Below, in pieces: positions 1,976-16,039 of a stretch of DNA of 44,933 nucleotides (its first letter is position 1; each line of letters begins with the position of its first letter). A program made the translations under genes and the position numbers. Under the pieces are notes generated by a model that saw nothing but the letters and a program-made list of their open reading frames with translations, searched no databases and had not been told where the DNA came from. This DNA comes from a virus. Lineage: Duplodnaviria > Heunggongvirae > Uroviricota > Caudoviricetes. The DNA lies in IMG/VR virus record IMGVR_UViG_2541047866_000012. One strand, given 5' to 3'.

Positions 1976-2971
1976 TCACTTTTGTTTTAGCTTTATAATT
2001 TCTGATATCATAGTTGTTAGCTTTGAATCGGAAAGATTCTGCAGTCTATCTTTCTCAATAGAAACTGTAGTTTGTCCCTTTTCTAATATGAAATTTCTTT
2101 CTGTTTTCATTAAAAGCATTGCCAACTCTTTTATCATGTCTTCGTTCTTGAATTCTTGAGCATATTTTAGAGACATGACTTTCATCTCAATATTTGTGAT
2201 TTCATTCTGAAAATATTTGATTTCGTCAAACCCATTTTTATAGAGGCGTAGAAAAAAATAAGCAAACAATTCAACGACTATTACAAATGATAATTTAGGA
2301 AGGTGATGAATAAAAAATCCCACCCCATCCACAATGTCTGGCGCGCTGTAAAGAAAGTAAGCAAGAGATAATATCCCTGTCAACGCAATTATTGTTCCGA
2401 TTGCAAGGTTAAGCCCACCTCGTCGATTGAGTCTGTCTATTTCAGACTCTAATCTTAGAACCATATCAGTATGGAGTTTATGTAAGCTGTAGCTCTTCTT
2501 AAAATCAGATATATCGCTTTTTAGGCTGTTATCTGCCAGAAGTATTGTGTTTCCAATTATTCTCTTTTTTGCATCGGATATTAACTTCTCCCTTTCACTC
2601 TCTGTTATTTCAATGGAAACTCCGGAAGATGTTCTATTTTCAATTTCGCTCAATTTTTTATTTAGCTTAACTATTTCTTTGTGAAAAATATATCTCGTGT
2701 TTTCAATATCTCTACCACCAATTCCTTTGTTTAAATAAGAAGTCATTATTGCGACAAAAGAACCAACAAAAACTAGGGCAGTTGCTGTAAATAAAATAAA
2801 CTCTTTCTTCTCGTTTATTAAATTTACTATTGATGATGATTCCAGTTGAATGTCTGAAAGCGAAGTTTTAAGCACAAAATTCATCACAGGTGAAACCATG
2901 ATTATGGCAACAACTATAATAAATCCATATTTTTTTATAATGTAAATAAGAAGACCAAATAAATCTTTCAT
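1976..2971 (-). CDS. AT-rich predicted 4-TM membrane protein with coiled-coil segments, unknown function (cargo / moron)
   Basis: ORF 1976-2992 (TTG); first ATG at 2971 gives about 331 aa; hydrophobic helices near residues 12-36, 66-88, 194-216, 225-250; much more AT-rich than backbone; no enzymatic motif seen. Confidence 0.8.
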   Translation of the reverse strand: MKDLFGLLIYIIKKYGFIIVVAIIMVSPVMNFVLKTSLSDIQLESSSIVNLINEKKEFILFTATALVFVGSFVAIMTSYLNKGIGGRDIENTRYIFHKEIVKLNKKLSEIENRTSSGVSIEITESEREKLISDAKKRIIGNTILLADNSLKSDISDFKKSYSLHKLHTDMVLRLESEIDRLNRRGGLNLAIGTIIALTGILSLAYFLYSAPDIVDGVGFFIHHLPKLSFVIVVELFAYFFLRLYKNGFDEIKYFQNEITNIEMKVMSLKYAQEFKNEDMIKELAMLLMKTERNFILEKGQTTVSIEKDRLQNLSDSKLTTMISEIIKLKQK

Positions 2972-3344
2972 TTTATCTTTTACCTGAAACAAATTTTTAT
3001 TAAAGTAACTTAAAAAATGATTGATTGCAAGATTTACTATTGCTGTTCATTTTAAATTACTATACCCCCCTATGCATACATATAATCCCATAGGGGAGAA
3101 GTTTATTAGTTAGTTAAGTTGAAGGCTATACCTACAATCTAATTCCCCTCCAACCTAACATGCACAAGCGTCAACCTATCGGTAGTGATAATTTTATGAG
3201 GATACGTATAAACAAGATTCTGAGTTGCTCCTATTCATTAAGACAATACATTTTGTAACTTCTGCTTTTGGCTCAGGGTGGGGTGTGAGATTAGGTTTGG
3301 CTCTGTGCCATAGATGTGTCAGTTCACATCTGAGCTAATACACA

Positions 3345-3539
3345 TTACTCAATCACTCCAGCAAACCTATATATCTTGTGTGACGCCCATTTATTTGGGC
3401 ATGATTTAATATCAGGATCTGGAAAATCAGGCCTGTATTTCTGGCCAGTTCTCCGGTTTACGCTGTTCCAGCGAAGAACTGTCGATACTGAAACGCCACA
3501 GAAGTCGGCGACTTGTTTAGTTGTCATTAAGTTGTTCAT
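3345..3539 (-). CDS. xis: Excisionase / AlpA-type HTH DNA-binding protein
   Basis: 64 aa; motif TTKQVADFCGVSVSTVLRWN typical of AlpA/Xis HTH; start overlaps stop of upstream gene (TAATG). Confidence 0.75.
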   Translation of the reverse strand: MNNLMTTKQVADFCGVSVSTVLRWNSVNRRTGQKYRPDFPDPDIKSCPNKWASHKIYRFAGVIE

Positions 3540-6959: not shown

Positions 6960-7322
6960 TTAATGACCTGCTGCGCGGAGTTTTCCGTCAGGTTCACCGG
7001 CAAGAGTCAGTAATTGTCCCTGGTCTTCCTGCAGAATAGTCAGGCGACCACCGCGATTGACATACATCGGCGTTTCGGTGGTGTCTTCTTCGGAAATTTT
7101 CCCGCGGTTAGTTGGGCGAACATATGAGAGTTTGTGTTTGATTTTCACACGGTTCTCATCAAACGGTTCGATTTCCAGATTGAGTGAGACCTTCCCTTTG
7201 GTTTTCGTGTTCATCACACCGGAAGCGACTTCACTTAGAACTGCGCCGATTTTTGTTTCAAATACGCCGCCGTCCAGCTCCCCGATAAATGCCTGCACAT
7301 CAGTACTGCGTTCACTAGCCAT
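6960..7322 (-). CDS. Hypothetical phage early protein (first gene of leftward operon)
   Basis: Start at MASERS (ATG 7322) preceded by GAGGAG RBS; 120 aa; the upstream extension in the ORF track lacks an RBS. Confidence 0.7.
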   Translation of the reverse strand: MASERSTDVQAFIGELDGGVFETKIGAVLSEVASGVMNTKTKGKVSLNLEIEPFDENRVKIKHKLSYVRPTNRGKISEEDTTETPMYVNRGGRLTILQEDQGQLLTLAGEPDGKLRAAGH

Positions 7323-8000
7323 TTTGCTGCTCCTCATCATATCGACCCTGCAATGTCGGTTAGTTTCTCCACAAAACAGAGAAGAACACCTGCGGTGGTA
7401 GCCGCCCGGATGGATTGGGTTATGAGCCCGTCGTCCGGTGATGTTCTTCTCTGTTTTGTAAAAAGAGCGGTACCAGCCGGAAGCAAGTGTACAAACTGGT
7501 ACCGCCAAAGCAGTGGCTGTTGTGGTGACCGGTGCTGATCTCCGGCTTGCGGTTATTTCAGACTCTCACGGGCATTTAATTGCCCCGCCGAACAGCTCTT
7601 TTCCGCAATAGCTGCAATGTCTTTCGCGCATCAGCCTGCGCATTCACCACAACGCTGAGAGCACTTAGCCAGTTACGGCACCACACTTTGTCGCGGTTCC
7701 ATAAATGCCCTCATCGTTGCACCCTGGTCTCTTCCCAGGTGTCAAACCGAACCGCCACGCTGGTTAGGCGTCTTATCAGCATCATCATTGACTTGCACAT
7801 TCCGGCTACCTGGTTTGTTTGCCCGAGCAAGGAGTGGATTGTCCCCTTTAACGTCCCCAGACCGCTAACGACGCATGTGCCATACGCCGTGTTACAACCA
7901 AATTTTGTTAGTACCTTGTTTGTTTGTCTGGAAAGAAAGATAAAATGAAGTTGCGCATTATGCAAGTGTTTTTGTTGCGAGATATGCAATTTAATGGGTA

Positions 8001-8024
8001 ATGAAAAGCCACCTTCGGGTGGCT
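8001..8024 (-). terminator. Intrinsic terminator downstream of cI
   Basis: Perfect hairpin AGCCACC-TTCG-GGTGGCT followed on the minus strand by TTTTCA; sits 20 bp after the cI stop. Confidence 0.7.
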
Positions 8025-8044
8025 AATTGATGAGGAGGTAAGGG

Positions 8045-8737
8045 TTAATTGTGTCGCTTAAGGGTTTGTGACTGGCTGATTAAGACCTTTCCAAAGACCA
8101 TAAACCGGTGTTCATTTTCGCTGGTAATTCCCCATTCACGGTAAATCTGGTTATCAGAAATCACCAGTAGTTTGTCAGGTATCATTTGCAGTCGTTTGAC
8201 ATAAATTTTATCATCAAAACCAAATACATAGATACCATCTCCATCAAACTGATTGATACTGACATCAACGAAGATGAGATCTCCTGGCTCAATGGTTGGA
8301 CACATACTGTCCCCACGAACGTTGATAACTTTAATGTGATTGGCTGGCCGTCCGCCAAACATCGATACAGCATTATCAGTTCTGTATTCAATGGCATGAA
8401 TCACATCAATGACATCACCGCCCTGGATAAGGCCATTTCCCGCACTGGCACTGACATCCAGCATTTCAATACGGAATACATCCTTCACCTGCGCAACATC
8501 CTCACTAATACTGTTTTTACATACAGTATTACTTTTGAAGTCTGAGGTAAAGAGATCAGCAATATCAACACCTAAGCTCCTGGCAATATTACTCAGGGCT
8601 TGTTCAGTGAATTGTTTCTGCTTACCTGTTTCCAGGCGTGAGATATTCGCCGCATCCACTCCTATTGCTTCAGCGAGATCGGCGATTTTCATGTTCTTCG
8701 CCTGGCGAAGTTGTCTGACTCGGTTTCCTATGTTCAT
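8045..8737 (-). CDS. cI: CI-type phage repressor (HTH_XRE + S24 LexA-like peptidase domain)
   Basis: 230 aa; N-terminal HTH (IADLAEAIGVDAANISRLETGK); C-terminal S24 motifs (GDSM, VKRL); divergent from cro across an operator region. Confidence 0.93.
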   Translation of the reverse strand: MNIGNRVRQLRQAKNMKIADLAEAIGVDAANISRLETGKQKQFTEQALSNIARSLGVDIADLFTSDFKSNTVCKNSISEDVAQVKDVFRIEMLDVSASAGNGLIQGGDVIDVIHAIEYRTDNAVSMFGGRPANHIKVINVRGDSMCPTIEPGDLIFVDVSINQFDGDGIYVFGFDDKIYVKRLQMIPDKLLVISDNQIYREWGITSENEHRFMVFGKVLISQSQTLKRHN

Positions 8738-8757: not shown

Positions 8758-8820
8758 TTGCGCGTTAAGCAAATCAACTTGCGCAAAATATTTGCGTGAA
8801 ATAATATGCTCATCACGCAA
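8758..8820. promoter_or_regulatory. OR operator region: two 29-bp sites with inverted TTGCG(T/C)G...C(A/G)CGCAA arms, overlapping PR (-35 TTGCGC 8779-8784, -10 TAATAT 8802-8807)
   Basis: Inverted repeat TTGCGTGA-N13-TCACGCAA at 8792-8820 and TTGCGCG...CTTGCGCAA at 8758-8786; 17-bp promoter spacer; between divergent cI and cro. Confidence 0.7.
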
Positions 8821-8834
8821 TATGTGGAGGTCAT

Positions 8835-9095
8835 ATGCAATCACCATTACGGAATGTGCGTAAGGCGCACGGATTTACTTTGCAGCATGTTGCTGCTGGC
8901 GTTCAGGTCAATCCAGCGACGCTGAGTCGTATTGAAAGACTGGAACAAATTCCATCTATCGATCTTGCAGAACGTCTGGCCAATTTTTTTAAGGGTGAAA
9001 TCAGCGAAATGCAGATTCTTTATCCGGCACGTTTTCAATCTAGCCAAAACCAGAATGGGTTTAAACCACAGGAACAGGAGGTAAGCCGTGGGTAA
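8835..9095 (+). CDS. cro: Cro-like HTH regulator
   Basis: 86 aa; RBS GGAGG; HTH FTLQHVAAGVQVNPATLSRIE; first gene rightward from OR. Confidence 0.85.
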   Translation: MQSPLRNVRKAHGFTLQHVAAGVQVNPATLSRIERLEQIPSIDLAERLANFFKGEISEMQILYPARFQSSQNQNGFKPQEQEVSRG

Positions 9096-9639
9096 TCATC
9101 ACTGGAAAGTGGAAAAACAGCCTGAGTGGTACGTGAAAGCTGTCAGAAAAACTATCGCGGCGTTGCCGGGGGGTTACGCTGAAGCTGCTGAGTGGCTGGA
9201 TGTAACAGAGAACGCTTTATTCAACCGCCTTCGTGCAGATGGCGATCAGATTTTCCCGCTGGGATGGGCAATGATTTTACAGCGTGCTGCTGGCACTCAC
9301 TACATTGCGGATGCTGTCGCACAGTCTGCTGGTGGGGTGTTTGTATCGCTTCCTGAAATTGAGGAAGTAGAGAACGCAGATATAAACCAGCGCCTGCTGG
9401 AAGTCATCGAACAGATCGGGAGTTACTCAAAGCAGATTCGTTCGGCAATCGAAGATGGGGTAGTGGAGCCACACGAGCAGACAGCAATTAATGATGAATT
9501 GTATCTGTCAATTTCGAAGCTCCAGGAGCATGCGGCACTGGTCTACAAAATTTTCTGCGCTCCAGAAAAGAGTGACGCCCGCGAGTGTGCAGCTCCGGGC
9601 GTCGTGGCGTTTTGTGTCTGTGGAGAAACTAACGCATGA
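9088..9639 (+). CDS. CII-like early regulatory protein (186-type CII / CP76-like, tentative)
   Basis: 183 aa; GTG start with AGGAGG RBS; position after cro; family assignment from memory only. Confidence 0.55.
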   Translation: MGNHHWKVEKQPEWYVKAVRKTIAALPGGYAEAAEWLDVTENALFNRLRADGDQIFPLGWAMILQRAAGTHYIADAVAQSAGGVFVSLPEIEEVENADINQRLLEVIEQIGSYSKQIRSAIEDGVVEPHEQTAINDELYLSISKLQEHAALVYKIFCAPEKSDARECAAPGVVAFCVCGETNA

Positions 9640-10472
9640 ACAGTTTAACGGCAAATAACCGTTTGTCGCAACAGCTGGTGGTCAGTGTCGCTGCACACCT
9701 GTTGTTACGGCATGAATGCAGATTACCAAATCACCTGGCTGTAAGTAACCACAGAGAACTTTACCTGACTGTGGGGGGCGAGTTGTGCAGGAACTTAACC
9801 GCTGGTTTCGTGACGGAAGAGGACTTTATGTTCATGTTATTCGTTGGGAGCCAGAAACACAGCGCGTTATCTATCTTCGCAAAGACTACCCGCATGAGTG
9901 CTTTAGTCCTTTGTGGAAATTCAGGCGTGATTTTGTTGAGTGTGAAGGACCACCAGCACATTGATTCTGCCATTCCGGGACGTTACACTGTTCAGGCACC
10001 TTATAAAGCGGGTGCCGGGCGTGGCGCCCCGGAATTGCATACGGCGACAATTGGCGCGTTAGCGTCTTTTTTGTTGCTACAACTCAGCTATACCCAAATT
10101 ATGGTGGGCTGGGTGGGGGCACCGAAAGGTGCGCCGGTTTCCGTATGCGCCGGTTACGCCAACCCTGCTCAGTTCACCACCAGCGAAATTGGCGTTTCCG
10201 GTGGTGGAAGTTATCCATTGCATACGGAGGCTGCCATCATGGCTACTGTCCCAGCCCTCTCTCGTCTGAATGATGACGACTTACATAAACTCAGTTATGT
10301 AACAACTGCACTACGTGCTCTGCGCAAGGTAACTCTTTCGGATCCGCAGGCACATCAGGTTCTGGTAGAAACCCTTCTTAACTTGCAGGCTGAACGTATT
10401 CGTCTGGCGGATAAGGCTAATTTTCATATTCACCGTCTCCTTAATATCAGCGGAGGGCATCGTCATGCTTAA
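9636..10472 (+). CDS. Hypothetical protein (frame uncertain in 5' third)
   Basis: 278 aa; start and stop overlap neighbours; 3' half shows purine-first / pyrimidine-third codon bias; an alternative frame at 9785-9963 also reads protein-like. Confidence 0.5.
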   Translation: MNSLTANNRLSQQLVVSVAAHLLLRHECRLPNHLAVSNHRELYLTVGGELCRNLTAGFVTEEDFMFMLFVGSQKHSALSIFAKTTRMSALVLCGNSGVILLSVKDHQHIDSAIPGRYTVQAPYKAGAGRGAPELHTATIGALASFLLLQLSYTQIMVGWVGAPKGAPVSVCAGYANPAQFTTSEIGVSGGGSYPLHTEAAIMATVPALSRLNDDDLHKLSYVTTALRALRKVTLSDPQAHQVLVETLLNLQAERIRLADKANFHIHRLLNISGGHRHA

Positions 10473-15656: not shown

Positions 15657-15673
15657 TTTTGTGGAGAAAGTTG

Positions 15674-16039
15674 ATGCGTGATATTCAAATGGTTCTTGAA
15701 CATTGGGGGGCATGGGTGGCAAATAATCACGAGGATGTCACCTGGTCGTCTATTGCTGCAGGATTTAAAGGACTAATCCCTTCAAAAGTAAAATCCCGCC
15801 CGCAATGTTGTGACGATGATGCGATGATCATTTGTGGGTGCATGGCTCGCTTGAAAAAGAACAACAGCGATTTGCACGATTTATTAGTGGATTATTATGT
15901 AGGTGGTATGACGTTTATGGCGCTTGCCCGTAAACATGGGCGTTCTGATTGCTGGGTTGGGCGTTTATTGCAAAAGGCTGAAGGTGTAGTTGATGGCATG
16001 TTAATGATGTTAGAAATTGAGCTAGAGATGGATCGTTAG
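15674..16039 (+). CDS. Q: Late-gene antiterminator Q (82/21-type)
   Basis: 121 aa from ATG 15674 (GGAG RBS); [34 protein letters not shown]...CGCMARLKK matches recalled Q-family sequences. Confidence 0.85.

Follow-up and report, generated by a model that had tools for sequence, protein, structure and literature searches.

The long gap between cI and the first leftward early gene in the phage DNA analyzed here (the window, 44,933 nucleotides in total) belongs to an SfV/mEp460-like prophage and forms the ~607-nt minus-strand leader of the prophage's pL operon. This leader is partly known, in that it contains sRNA-17, and partly new, in that it contains an undescribed three-way-junction RNA. On balance, we lean toward a model whereby positions 7323 to 7965 comprise the promoter–operator and the leader of a cI-repressed early-left operon and form a cassette of the Qin dicBF kind for RNA processing and attenuation. 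More broadly, our findings suggest that early operons are gated by a modular cassette of a terminator and processing sites in P1 and in the SfV/ST64B/mEp460 group of N-less lambdoid phages.

The leader region is bordered on the right by the intrinsic terminator of cI (8007 to 8024, minus strand), which consists of a 7-bp G+C-rich stem followed by a T-run, and beyond which lies the cI gene itself (8045 to 8737, minus strand); ST64B and phiNP have a corresponding hairpin. On the left, the leftward operon begins with a yfdP homologue (ATG at 7322 to 7320, minus strand; PHROG 204, E = 1e-49), and its Shine-Dalgarno sequence GAGGAG is located at 7335 to 7330 (element 7320 to 7335, minus strand). 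A long gap is a conserved feature of related phages (ST64B, ~815 bp; phiNP, ~990 bp). An earlier note on this DNA had described the gap as free of ORFs and had named a coding gene detected by homology as the finding that would speak against this. In the literal sense, the description does not hold because mechanical ORFs do exist at 7323 to 8000 (one of 122 aa on the plus strand; four, of 92, 49, 36, and 25 aa, on the minus strand). However, no gene is supported on either strand: none of these ORFs reaches threshold in a Pfam search, the indels between homologous copies of the gap are not multiples of three and the reading frames are not kept, the junction element ranges from 95 to 122 nt with length steps not divisible by three, and segments of the gap recombine independently of any ORF boundary. 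The gap is noncoding. Among the candidates that we rejected, a small CxxC ORF (7569 to 7643) has only sub-threshold zinc-ribbon matches, and its last Cys is an Arg in the copies of P1 and RS218; a 182-aa N-terminal extension of YfdP from a TTG at 7508 would cross the junction RNA, the length of which varies out of frame; and a 10-nt inverted repeat between the cI 3′ UTR (8028 to 8037) and the yfdP ribosome-binding site (7330 to 7339) is at chance level, with ~0.35 expected in the region by a rough estimate, and is absent from ST64B. The window encodes CII-like and Q-like proteins. As the earlier note had stated, no N-like protein is recognizable among the early ORFs scanned, in which the only antitermination family is Q-like.

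The suggestion that pL and OL lie in this stretch, in which the earlier note had seen recurring TTGCG-type half-sites, proved well founded. The stretch contains two operators with the exact palindrome TTGC-N7-GCAA, i.e., OL2 (TTGCGAGATATGCAA, 7975 to 7989) and OL1 (TTGCGCATTATGCAA, 7951 to 7965). The motif is common to OL1 and OR, with one match in the OR region (8758 to 8772); one further match, the fourth in the 45-kb window, does not exceed chance. In alignment A1, the operators of ST64B and phiNP are found at the same position. OL1 overlaps the −35 hexamer and the spacer of the predicted pL (7929 to 7965, minus strand), for which we read a −35 hexamer TTGCAT (7965 to 7960), a 17-nt spacer, a −10 hexamer TATCTT (7942 to 7937), and a putative start near 7929. 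Hexamers at matching positions are TTGCGC/TAATTT in ST64B and TTGCGT/TATCTT in phiNP. Because the score of pL is below the threshold of the promoter scanner, its position is inferred from sequence.

Downstream of the predicted pL, the leader is a series of folded, conserved RNA modules. The 5′ leader module (7726 to 7908, minus strand) has 78% identity to the trnI-ban spacer of P1-like plasmids and is also present in Klebsiella phage Kp4866-6. As a whole, it has no significant structure (folding z = −0.7); it contains a hairpin with a purine-rich loop, CCUGG-GAAGAGA-CCAGG (7743 to 7727, minus strand), and the comparison to the P1-like plasmids yields frame-breaking indels together with compensatory changes in this hairpin. 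Next follows X#1, a long imperfect hairpin of ~17 pairs (7653 to 7721, minus strand; MFE z = −3.7). The stem of X#1 covaries: 12 to 13 of 13 pairs are formed in 19 of 20 loci, with eight different arm sequences. Its 3′ arm bears the boxA-like sequence UGCUCUCA (7668 to 7661) and terminates at the 5′ end of sRNA-17.

The published sRNA-17 is this locus, with the same sequence and on the same strand, and the earlier guess that the gap might hold an sRNA was thus correct. sRNA-17 was described in Escherichia coli K1 strain RS218, in which it derives from the same locus and strand of a near-identical mEp460-like prophage. The primers of Sun et al. 2020 for RACE, Northern, and full-length detection map with 0 to 1 mismatch to 7461 to 7654 (PMC7719688): the full-length primers match 7461 to 7492 and 7622 to 7654 without mismatches, and the Northern probe, which is antisense to the minus strand, has one. 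In the window, the 193-nt RNA (7461 to 7653, minus strand) consists of a closed domain and a terminator. The closing stem pairs GUUGUGGUGA (7653 to 7644) with UCACCACAAC (7528 to 7519) and is based on alignment A1 and manual reading, because in divergent loci the automated search for its 3′ partner gave noisy results. Five distant phages share the 5′ box CGUUGUGGUG without change. sRNA-17 begins where the covarying X#1 helix has its 3′ base, and the published RACE data do not separate a primary from a processed 5′ end. In RS218, sRNA-17 was characterized by RACE and Northern analysis, was detected in the lysogen, increases in stationary phase, and accumulates to oxygen- and ArcA-dependent levels (PMC7719688). 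Deletion of 7511 to 7628 in RS218 increased yfdP from 0.5 to 47 normalized reads (log2 change 6.6), and yfdR also increased (PMC7719688), which points to a cis effect. This deletion retains the terminator hairpin, and simple attenuation does not explain the increase in yfdP.

sRNA-17 ends in a DicF-like intrinsic terminator (7461 to 7506, minus strand; fold z = −4.1). The 13-bp stem of this terminator (7506 to 7494/7478 to 7466, with the core GCGGUACCAG/CUGGUACCGC) is followed by UCUUUUU and covaries between phages, reading GUCGGCGUC in ST64B and GGCGGUUAUCC in Kp4866-6, with compensatory versions in others as well. The element, thus, has the G+C-rich hairpin, the U-run, and the conserved structure of Rho-independent terminators; the terminator scanner overlooked it because its loop is longer than 8 nt. 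It shares with DicF the run UUUGGCGGUAYCAGUUU, and in a local alignment to DicF, the first 17 aligned positions, UUUGGCGGUA[U/C]CAGUUU, are identical except for one. The Rfam DicF model (RF00039; gathering score 48 bits) has no match in the window even at E ≤ 10, while it gives 28.5 bits for the e14 counterpart of the terminator and 76.7 bits for genuine DicF. The predicted duplex energy of the DicF-like tail with the ftsZ leader was no better than that of shuffles, in a crude test that genuine DicF also failed.

The terminator is directly followed by the new part of the leader, a 95-nt three-way-junction RNA (X#2; 7365 to 7459, minus strand) for which the MFE structure is the structure that we draw (z = −7.2). 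It consists of P1 (20 bp; 7459 to 7440/7390 to 7371), P2 (7438 to 7406) with the invariant tip GGG-CUCAUAA-CCC (7429 to 7417), and P3, a variable hairpin (7405 to 7392), and has the conserved tail GUGGAGAA. Several lines of evidence support this structure and its strand. First, in 29 nonredundant copies, 96% of cells are paired, eight pairs have compensatory changes, and none of 500 shuffles reaches the observed covariation score. Second, a U·G pair that is kept in 26 of the 29 copies, and 13 G·U pairs in addition, are compatible with the minus strand only. Third, the covariance model scores 108 bits on the sense strand versus 46 bits on the antisense strand. One position in the middle of P1 is mismatched in 21 of the 29 copies. 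The junction RNA is present in one copy per locus in 97 of the 98 IMG/VR prophage loci searched. It occurs in ~24 species of Enterobacterales, and 91 of 94 distinct copies directly follow a terminator U-run (T-run in DNA). Because the gene downstream differs between phages, the junction RNA goes with the position rather than with the gene. An Rfam scan, proposed earlier as a check, found nothing in the leader of the window or in related loci at gathering or permissive thresholds; the C4 and isrK matches lie elsewhere in the window. The junction RNA is, therefore, a well-supported RNA motif that is absent from Rfam. Between this RNA and the Shine-Dalgarno sequence lies a short hairpin with a (U/G)UGCAG loop (7341 to 7360, minus strand), which is weak by itself in the window (z = −0.8); among phages, its stem varies (CCGAC/GUCG, GGCGG/CCGCC, GCGCC/GGCGC) while the UGCAG loop is retained. 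Parts of the leader match about half of the complete E. coli genomes (2,945 of 5,426).

By analogy with dicBF of prophage Qin, we suggest that transcription begins at pL near 7929 when repression by cI is lifted or leaky, and that the pL RNA passes the 5′ module and X#1 and then the closed domain ending in the DicF-like terminator (7461 to 7506). Termination together with an endonucleolytic cut at the base of X#1 would yield the stable 193-nt sRNA-17. The enzyme would most likely be RNase III; RNase P could act instead, given that sRNA-17 begins precisely with the first pair of a helix. yfdP and the genes behind it would be transcribed only in read-through RNAs, and the terminator would, thus, attenuate early-left expression. 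P1, as a 20-bp helix with a central mismatch right after the U-run, may serve as a second RNase III site on the read-through RNA, and a cut there would free the mRNA from the sRNA, so that a hairpin would protect the new 5′ end of the mRNA next to the ribosome-binding site. Compared to the ~20 bp of double-stranded RNA of RNase III sites, P1 has 20 bp that covary and X#1 has ~17 pairs. The central mismatch of P1 resembles that of single-cut RNase III sites, e.g., R1.1 of phage T7. However, the near-invariant nucleotides of P2 would not be needed in a plain RNase III site, and a more specific role of the junction RNA is, therefore, probable.

Some observations fit less well with the cassette model. 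sRNA-17 was detected in lysogens without induction, a state in which pL is expected to be repressed; the sRNA body and terminator of the window are without STnc100 or DicF matches at E ≤ 10; and in the Mixta locus L136 and in L080, the junction RNA has no preceding terminator and directly follows pL (~25 nt downstream). Moreover, ArcA binds in gel shifts to a fragment mapping to 7654 to 7903, which Sun et al. took to be the promoter of sRNA-17 (PMC7719688). It is conceivable, if unlikely, that sRNA-17 is indeed an independent gene with its own ArcA-repressed promoter within the leader, in which case the remaining gap would be spacer and yfdP 5′ UTR. The RACE ends, the Northern signal, the oxygen- and ArcA-dependent levels, the gel shift, and the expression in the lysogen would all agree with such a promoter. 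However, the promoter scan identified no σ70-like promoter on the minus strand upstream of 7653; the putative −10 region lies in the covarying helix and varies between phages in alignment A1; the GTTA-N-GTTA ArcA motif is ~190 nt upstream of the sRNA-17 5′ end; the whole gap, and not only the sRNA, is conserved and structured; and Qin provides a precedent without an internal promoter (PMC10448788). The earlier note had raised the possibility of a cis-acting antitermination RNA similar to put of HK022. That the junction RNA, and perhaps also X#1, replaces N as such a processive antiterminator would be in line with the lack of an N-like gene among the early ORFs scanned, with the strong, strand-specific conservation of an RNA located in the nascent early transcript, and with the putL-like spacing from pL of the Mixta and L080 copies. 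We nevertheless regard this as improbable. put of HK022 comprises two open stem-loops of ~70 nt ahead of terminators (PMC9378689), whereas the element in the window is a closed junction, and in 91 of 94 copies the leader's only strong terminator precedes it. In the HK022 immunity region, blastn finds no similarity, and the junction model R1 scores no more than 16 bits, with a generic hairpin. Also, intrinsic terminators on the minus strand of the operon body are not above chance, so there would be little left to antiterminate; Rho-dependent sites are not predictable here. What the two systems do have in common is a noncoding RNA in the nascent early transcript of an N-less lambdoid phage (HK022 putL/putR and the window leader). 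The other suggestion of the earlier note, a nut site with a small Arg-rich N-like peptide, appears scarcely credible. The candidate peptide, (M)VNAQADARKTLQLLRKRAVRRGN, lies inside sRNA-17 in an Arg-rich frame of 23 codons that begins at the conserved GUG/AUG of the 5′ box, and would be accompanied by the boxA-like UGCUCUCA and by the GAAGAGA-loop hairpin of the 5′ module, which resembles the GAAGA loop of λ nutL boxB. This hairpin (7743 to 7727) has a covarying stem of 5 bp and a loop of 7 nt (6 to 8 nt in relatives), compared to the five-base GNRA-like loop of boxB. However, the peptide has neither a Shine-Dalgarno sequence nor a Pfam match, is not conserved in the copies of ST64B, Qin, and Klebsiella beyond the constraint of the RNA hairpin, and lacks the regions with which N binds NusA and RNAP; none of the small Arg-rich ORFs is conserved at the protein level. 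UGCUCUCA is not a single-stranded boxA of the CGCUCUUA type but is paired and covaries as the 3′ arm of X#1 in 19 of 20 loci.

With regard to the junction RNA itself, 14 nt of its P2 arm, CGGGCUCAUAACCC, are identical to the anticodon stem-loop of E. coli tRNA-fMet and include the three G-C pairs that mark initiator tRNAs. A mimic of the initiator-tRNA anticodon arm, acting as a decoy or binding site for a tRNA-fMet–recognizing factor (candidates are a VapC-type anticodon nuclease, the 30S P site with IF3, and MetRS), or a tRNA-gene relic would account for this identity, for the GGG/UCAUA/CCC core that is invariant in all copies including those of P1, Yersinia, and Pantoea, and for the finding that related modules adjoin real tRNA genes in P1 and bear T-arm–like hairpins. 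We consider such an origin or function highly doubtful because the match was spotted after the fact, loop position 37 is a U in the copies of ST64B and Klebsiella, the anticodon-equivalent base varies in e14 and L105, and neither ARAGORN (window and related lambdoid loci) nor the Rfam tRNA model (loci L003 to L006) calls a tRNA. Also, we know of no binding partner for the tRNA-like arm. A wider reading, which we put forward as a speculation with rather little chance of being correct, is that the junction RNA represents a new class of cis-acting phage RNA that is more than a nuclease site, mimics the initiator-tRNA anticodon stem-loop with its invariant arm, marks the entry into early operons of temperate phages across the Enterobacterales, and occurs in tandem in the ban operon of P1. 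Such an RNA could recruit or divert a tRNA-fMet–recognizing factor, possibly an anticodon nuclease, the ribosomal P site with IF3, or a modification enzyme, or could modify RNA polymerase. In a published screen, a clone of e14 “ymfH” triggered the toxin of Retron-Sen2. The ymfH ORF overlies an RNA array of this kind, and the triggering would fit an activity at the RNA level; our literature search on ymfH returned this retron-trigger mention only.

The assignments made here have implications beyond the window. sRNA-17, which is linked to virulence, is now placed in a cI-controlled pL leader and tied to DicF. Sun et al. treat sRNA-17 as a stand-alone, ArcA-regulated, trans-acting sRNA, and their paper does not contain the placement in a pL leader, the DicF-like terminator, the flanking conserved structures, or the idea of processing (PMC7719688). 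The placement in the leader changes how the regulation of sRNA-17 and the effect of its deletion on yfdP are read. In addition, annotated “hypothetical proteins” overlie conserved RNA structures, i.e., ymfH (e14 in K-12), mEp460_036, and mEp460_037, and probably also plp and upl of P1.

The cassette model finds parallels in several known systems. RNase III sites such as those of the λ N leader and of the T7 R1.1 type share with the junction RNA a mismatched helix of about two turns that is located between the functional units of a polycistronic early RNA and just upstream of a ribosome-binding site; unlike the junction RNA, they are simple hairpins without an invariant branched interior. The closest likeness is to dicBF of Qin, in which, as here, a terminator-ended sRNA lies in a repressor-controlled early prophage operon and obtains its 3′ end from an intrinsic terminator inside that operon. 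DicF derives from a polycistronic RNA without an internal promoter and accumulates in stationary phase, and the 5′ end of its 190-nt form depends on RNase III (PMC10448788); for its 3′ end there are two routes, the terminator and RNase III cleavage ~19 nt further on in the read-through RNA (PMC5069750). The two loci, thus, have in common a form of ~190 nt with a 5′ end in a long stem, the accumulation in stationary phase, and a long helix directly after the terminator. Our covariance model detects the stem equivalent to X#1 in Qin at 17.8 bits; this stem ends at a GUUGUGG box resembling that of sRNA-17, and length arithmetic places the start of the 190-nt DicF form within it. The two loci differ in that the terminator loop is 19 nt in the window versus ~11 nt in DicF, in that the junction RNA has only a weak counterpart in Qin, and in module order, with DicF preceding an STnc100-like element in Qin and an STnc100-like body preceding the terminator in the window. 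The STnc100 model (RF02076) scores 35.1 bits in ST64B, 29.2 in e14, 34.4 in Qin, and 38.0 in P1-like elements, all below the gathering score of 47, and does not match the window copy even at E ≤ 10; the likeness to STnc100 and PasD lies in the (U)GGUG…CACC(A) closing stem, the GAAU box, the first hairpin, and a last hairpin that abuts the closing stem. STnc100 and PasD are encoded near Q and the lysis genes and not in a pL leader (bioRxiv 10.64898/2026.05.13.724894), and we rejected the Pas sRNAs of this Zhu/Storz preprint as the identity of the RNA because they belong to the late region, at another locus. Finally, the leader of the P1 ban operon (Pban/Op72, the “dicF-like region”) belongs to an early operon repressed by C1 and is built of the same module types: the sRNA-17 core has 95% identity, the module at 7726 to 7903 has 78% identity, and there are two diverged junction RNAs. 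In P1, these modules form a tandem array that is interleaved with real tRNA genes and tciABC and is annotated in part as the antisense ORFs plp and upl.

The window represents a lambdoid prophage of the SfV/mEp460 type and, across the region, shares 98-99% identity with phages PhiR63_1 and mEp460. A gap at 7323-8000 separates cI (8045-8737, minus strand) and its terminator (8007-8024) from the leftward genes, the first of which, a yfdP homologue, begins at 7322 after the Shine-Dalgarno sequence GAGGAG and is followed by yfdQ and yfdR homologues; cro (8835-9095, plus strand), a CII-like gene (9088-9636) and a Q-like gene (15659-16036) are also present. In ST64B and phiNP, the repressor gene is separated from the first leftward gene by an equally long gap. 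The earlier note described this gap as ORF-free. Mechanical ORFs are present, but none matches Pfam at threshold, and indels between homologous copies are not multiples of three; the gap is real and non-coding. By BLAST it is a mosaic, and its pieces (7323-7508/7535, 7518-7666, 7647-7909 and 7910-8044) are found separately in other phages, e14 and P1-like plasmids. Copies of the operator motif TTGC-N7-GCAA lie at 7951-7965, 7975-7989 and 8758-8772. Because the promoter scanner gave pL no score, we infer its position from the minus-strand sequence and the alignment with ST64B and phiNP, with a −35 element TTGCAT at 7965-7960, a −10 element TATCTT at 7942-7937 and a predicted start near 7929.

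Read as minus-strand RNA, the leader is a chain of conserved modules, mapped by alignment with ST64B, phiNP, Klebsiella phage Kp4866-6 and e14 and in 120 IMG/VR loci retrieved with a degenerate pattern. The 5' module (7908-7726) is 78% identical to the trnI-ban spacer of P1-like plasmids, with frame-breaking indels, and contains a hairpin (7743-7727) with compensatory stem changes. Next comes a long imperfect hairpin, X#1 (7721-7653, z = −3.7), whose arms are paired at 12-13 of 13 positions in 19 of 20 loci and occur in eight different sequences. The following sRNA domain (7653-7519) is closed by GUUGUGGUGA and UCACCACAAC; the five aligned phages share an unchanged 5' box, CGUUGUGGUG, and a copy of the core with 95% identity is carried by ∼280 plasmids of roughly 90-100 kb, P1-like in appearance. 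The window copy has no match to Rfam STnc100, whose gathering score of 47 is also not reached by the counterparts in ST64B, e14, Qin and P1 (29-38 bits). A strong intrinsic terminator with a 13-bp stem and UCUUUUU (7506-7461, z = −4.1) has a covarying stem in the five-phage alignment; its 5' half UUUGGCGGUACCAGUUU matches UUUGGCGGUAUCAGUUU of DicF, and Rfam DicF gives 28.5 bits for its counterpart in e14. Last, a short hairpin (7360-7341), whose loop reads (U/G)UGCAG and whose stem differs among phages, precedes the Shine-Dalgarno sequence and ATG. The cI 3' UTR sequence CUCCUCAUCA (8028-8037) is a perfect 10-nt complement to the yfdP ribosome-binding region UGAUGAGGAG (7330-7339); a rough estimate puts such a match at the level of chance given the size of the region, and it is not conserved in ST64B.

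The core of this leader is already known. An sRNA in the gap, one of the suggestions of the earlier note, has been published as the 193-nt sRNA-17, mapped by RACE and Northern blot in the mEp460-like prophage of E. coli K1 strain RS218 (Sun et al. 2020, PMC7719688). The published primers fall at 7461-7492 and 7622-7654 with 0 mismatches and the probes detect minus-strand RNA; therefore, sRNA-17 corresponds to 7461-7653 on the minus strand, the strand of the pL operon. Its level rises in stationary phase, and with an RS218 deletion equivalent to 7511-7628, yfdP rose from 0.5 to 47 reads and yfdR increased as well (PMC7719688), genes that lie adjacent to and downstream of the deleted stretch. 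The 10-mer GACAUUGCAG (RNA sense) occurs twice, at 7348-7357 in the loop of the pre-Shine-Dalgarno hairpin and at 7612-7621 in a single-stranded part of sRNA-17.

Between the terminator and the short hairpin lies a three-way-junction RNA (7459-7365, minus strand; arms P1, P2 and P3), for which the minimum free energy fold equals the alignment-derived structure (z = −7.2). Several lines of evidence support it. Pairing holds in 96% of cells across 29 non-redundant copies, with both sides changed in eight pairs; 0 of 500 shuffles reach the covariation score, and slid controls collapse. A U.G pair in 26 of the 29 copies and 13 G.U pairs fit the minus strand only, and the covariance model gives 108 bits in sense versus 46 bits in antisense. 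This model finds exactly one copy per locus in 97 IMG/VR loci and, in a scan of one genome per species, copies in ∼24 Enterobacterales species from Escherichia to Erwinia, Mixta, Pantoea and Yersinia. The interior CACCGGGCGACGGGCUCAUAACCCAAUCCACCCGG is near-invariant, while the flanking P2a pairs covary (CCGGG/CCCGG, CCGGA/UCCGG, CUGAAU/AUUCGG), and in 21 of 29 copies the 20-bp helix is mismatched at its centre. A 14-nt stretch of the tip, CGGGCUCAUAACCC, is also part of E. coli tRNA-fMet, in which this sequence was verified in 5,426 of 5,426 complete genomes. A run of at least five T lies within 14 nt upstream of P1 in 91 of 94 distinct copies; exceptions include Mixta and L080, with the junction RNA directly after pL. 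Because the downstream gene varies, the junction RNA is tied to position rather than to yfdP. With no matching Rfam family, it is a well-supported motif that is undescribed as far as Rfam shows. UUGCAG and UGGCAG loops also occur in arm P3 of other phages. A full-scoring copy (94.8 bits) at 3333-3452 of a contig labelled Chryseobacterium sp. 18061 (L139), assigned to a Bacteroidota genome, is probably enterobacterial contamination or a mis-binned prophage.

Relatives of these modules recur elsewhere. In P1-like plasmids, a tandem array follows tRNA-Asn and tRNA-Thr, in which long-stem elements, two of them diverged junction RNAs (42.5 and 34 bits), alternate with sRNA-17/STnc100-like domains. 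The P1 record places this array within the C1-repressed ban operon, with a "dicF-like region" annotated behind Pban and the ORFs plp and upl on the opposite strand; these ORFs may be annotation artefacts. From tRNA-Thr to tciA, the array occupies the ban-operon strand in pS51_2 (L127, 2300-3220, minus strand) and P1 (L158, 1473-2042). In e14, the annotated gene ymfH (2502-2813, minus strand, in the E. coli K-12-type locus L006) covers a junction RNA at 2533-2627, a terminator of DicF type at 2633-2686 and an STnc100-like domain, and is therefore probably not a protein gene. A ymfH clone is a reported trigger of the Retron-Sen2 toxin RcaT (bioRxiv 10.1101/2020.06.22.160242), an effect that might therefore be RNA-mediated.

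Other leaders showed further features. In many relatives (L004, L005, L010, L015, L038 and others), three hairpins lie within the X#1 stem, ∼120-250 nt upstream of the terminator, two of them with T-arm-like loops (CUGG-UUCGAUU-CCAG and GUCCG-UUCGAUU-CGGAC). In L096 and L078, the sRNA-like domain resembles a tRNA that has D- and T-arms plus a long insert. ARAGORN called no tRNA in either set. Another conserved module, GGCGCGGCGGUAAGYAUGGC...GGUUGACCAURCGC, lies upstream of DicF in Qin (L128, 4870-4960), behind Pban in P1, where the "dicF-like region" is annotated (L127, 3880-3990), and within the sRNA-like domain of several lambdoid leaders (L025, L038, L121, L153). In the rightward early operon of the window, an isrK-like RNA (56.9 bits) and, immediately after it, a P1-type C4 antisense RNA (80.7 bits) occupy 9996-10184 (plus strand) within a mechanical 278-aa ORF (9636-10472), where mEp460 has a Rha-type antirepressor gene; the pair suggests a P1 immI-like RNA immunity module in a lambdoid phage.

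We suggest that sRNA-17 is a processed and terminated product of pL transcripts and that the terminator at 7506-7461 would act as an attenuator for the leftward operon. The junction RNA abutting the U-run would then be a punctuation site in read-through RNA, and a cut in its 20-bp helix would place a hairpin close to the new 5' end of the yfdP mRNA; all nuclease steps at the leader are inferred. The antitermination elements suggested in the earlier note are not supported. The junction RNA has no similarity to the HK022 put RNA, differs in architecture and lies on the wrong side of the terminator. As for a nut site with a small N, the boxA-like UGCUCUCA is ruled out, because X#1 arms are paired across differing sequences and it is thus part of a helix. 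The loop of the boxB-like hairpin is 7 nt long, and a scan of early ORFs revealed no N-like protein. No further minus-strand terminators above chance were detected in the operon body, so that processive antitermination is not obviously needed.

Two other views are alive. sRNA-17 could be transcribed from its own promoter, since ArcA binding upstream of it was reported (PMC7719688) and it is present in uninduced lysogens, which does not fit processing from pL; nor does simple attenuation fit the RS218 deletion, which retains the terminator, yet yfdP increases. Likewise, the junction RNA could bind a specific ligand, as the near-invariance of the P2 interior exceeds the needs of a nuclease site.

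The processing model has a precedent in Qin. There, the ydfC-dicB gap contains, in order, a weak long-stem relative (17.8 bits), DicF and an STnc100-like domain just before dicB. DicF derives from a repressor-controlled polycistronic RNA without an internal promoter, accumulates in stationary phase, and exists in two forms, one of 190 nt with an RNase III-dependent 5' end and one of 53 nt that depends on RNase E (PMC10448788). Either the terminator or, in read-through RNA, RNase III cleavage ∼19 nt beyond it generates the 3' end of DicF (PMC5069750). By length arithmetic, the 5' end of the 190-nt form falls in the 3' arm of the model-detected long stem, adjoining a GUUGUGG box. Similarly, the 193-nt sRNA-17 begins at GUUGUGG at the X#1 base, ends at a DicF-like terminator and increases in stationary phase; we therefore read it as the counterpart of long DicF. 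Altogether, we class sRNA-17 with DicF as a probable processed RNA of an early operon, and the leader as a whole as a new example of this type.
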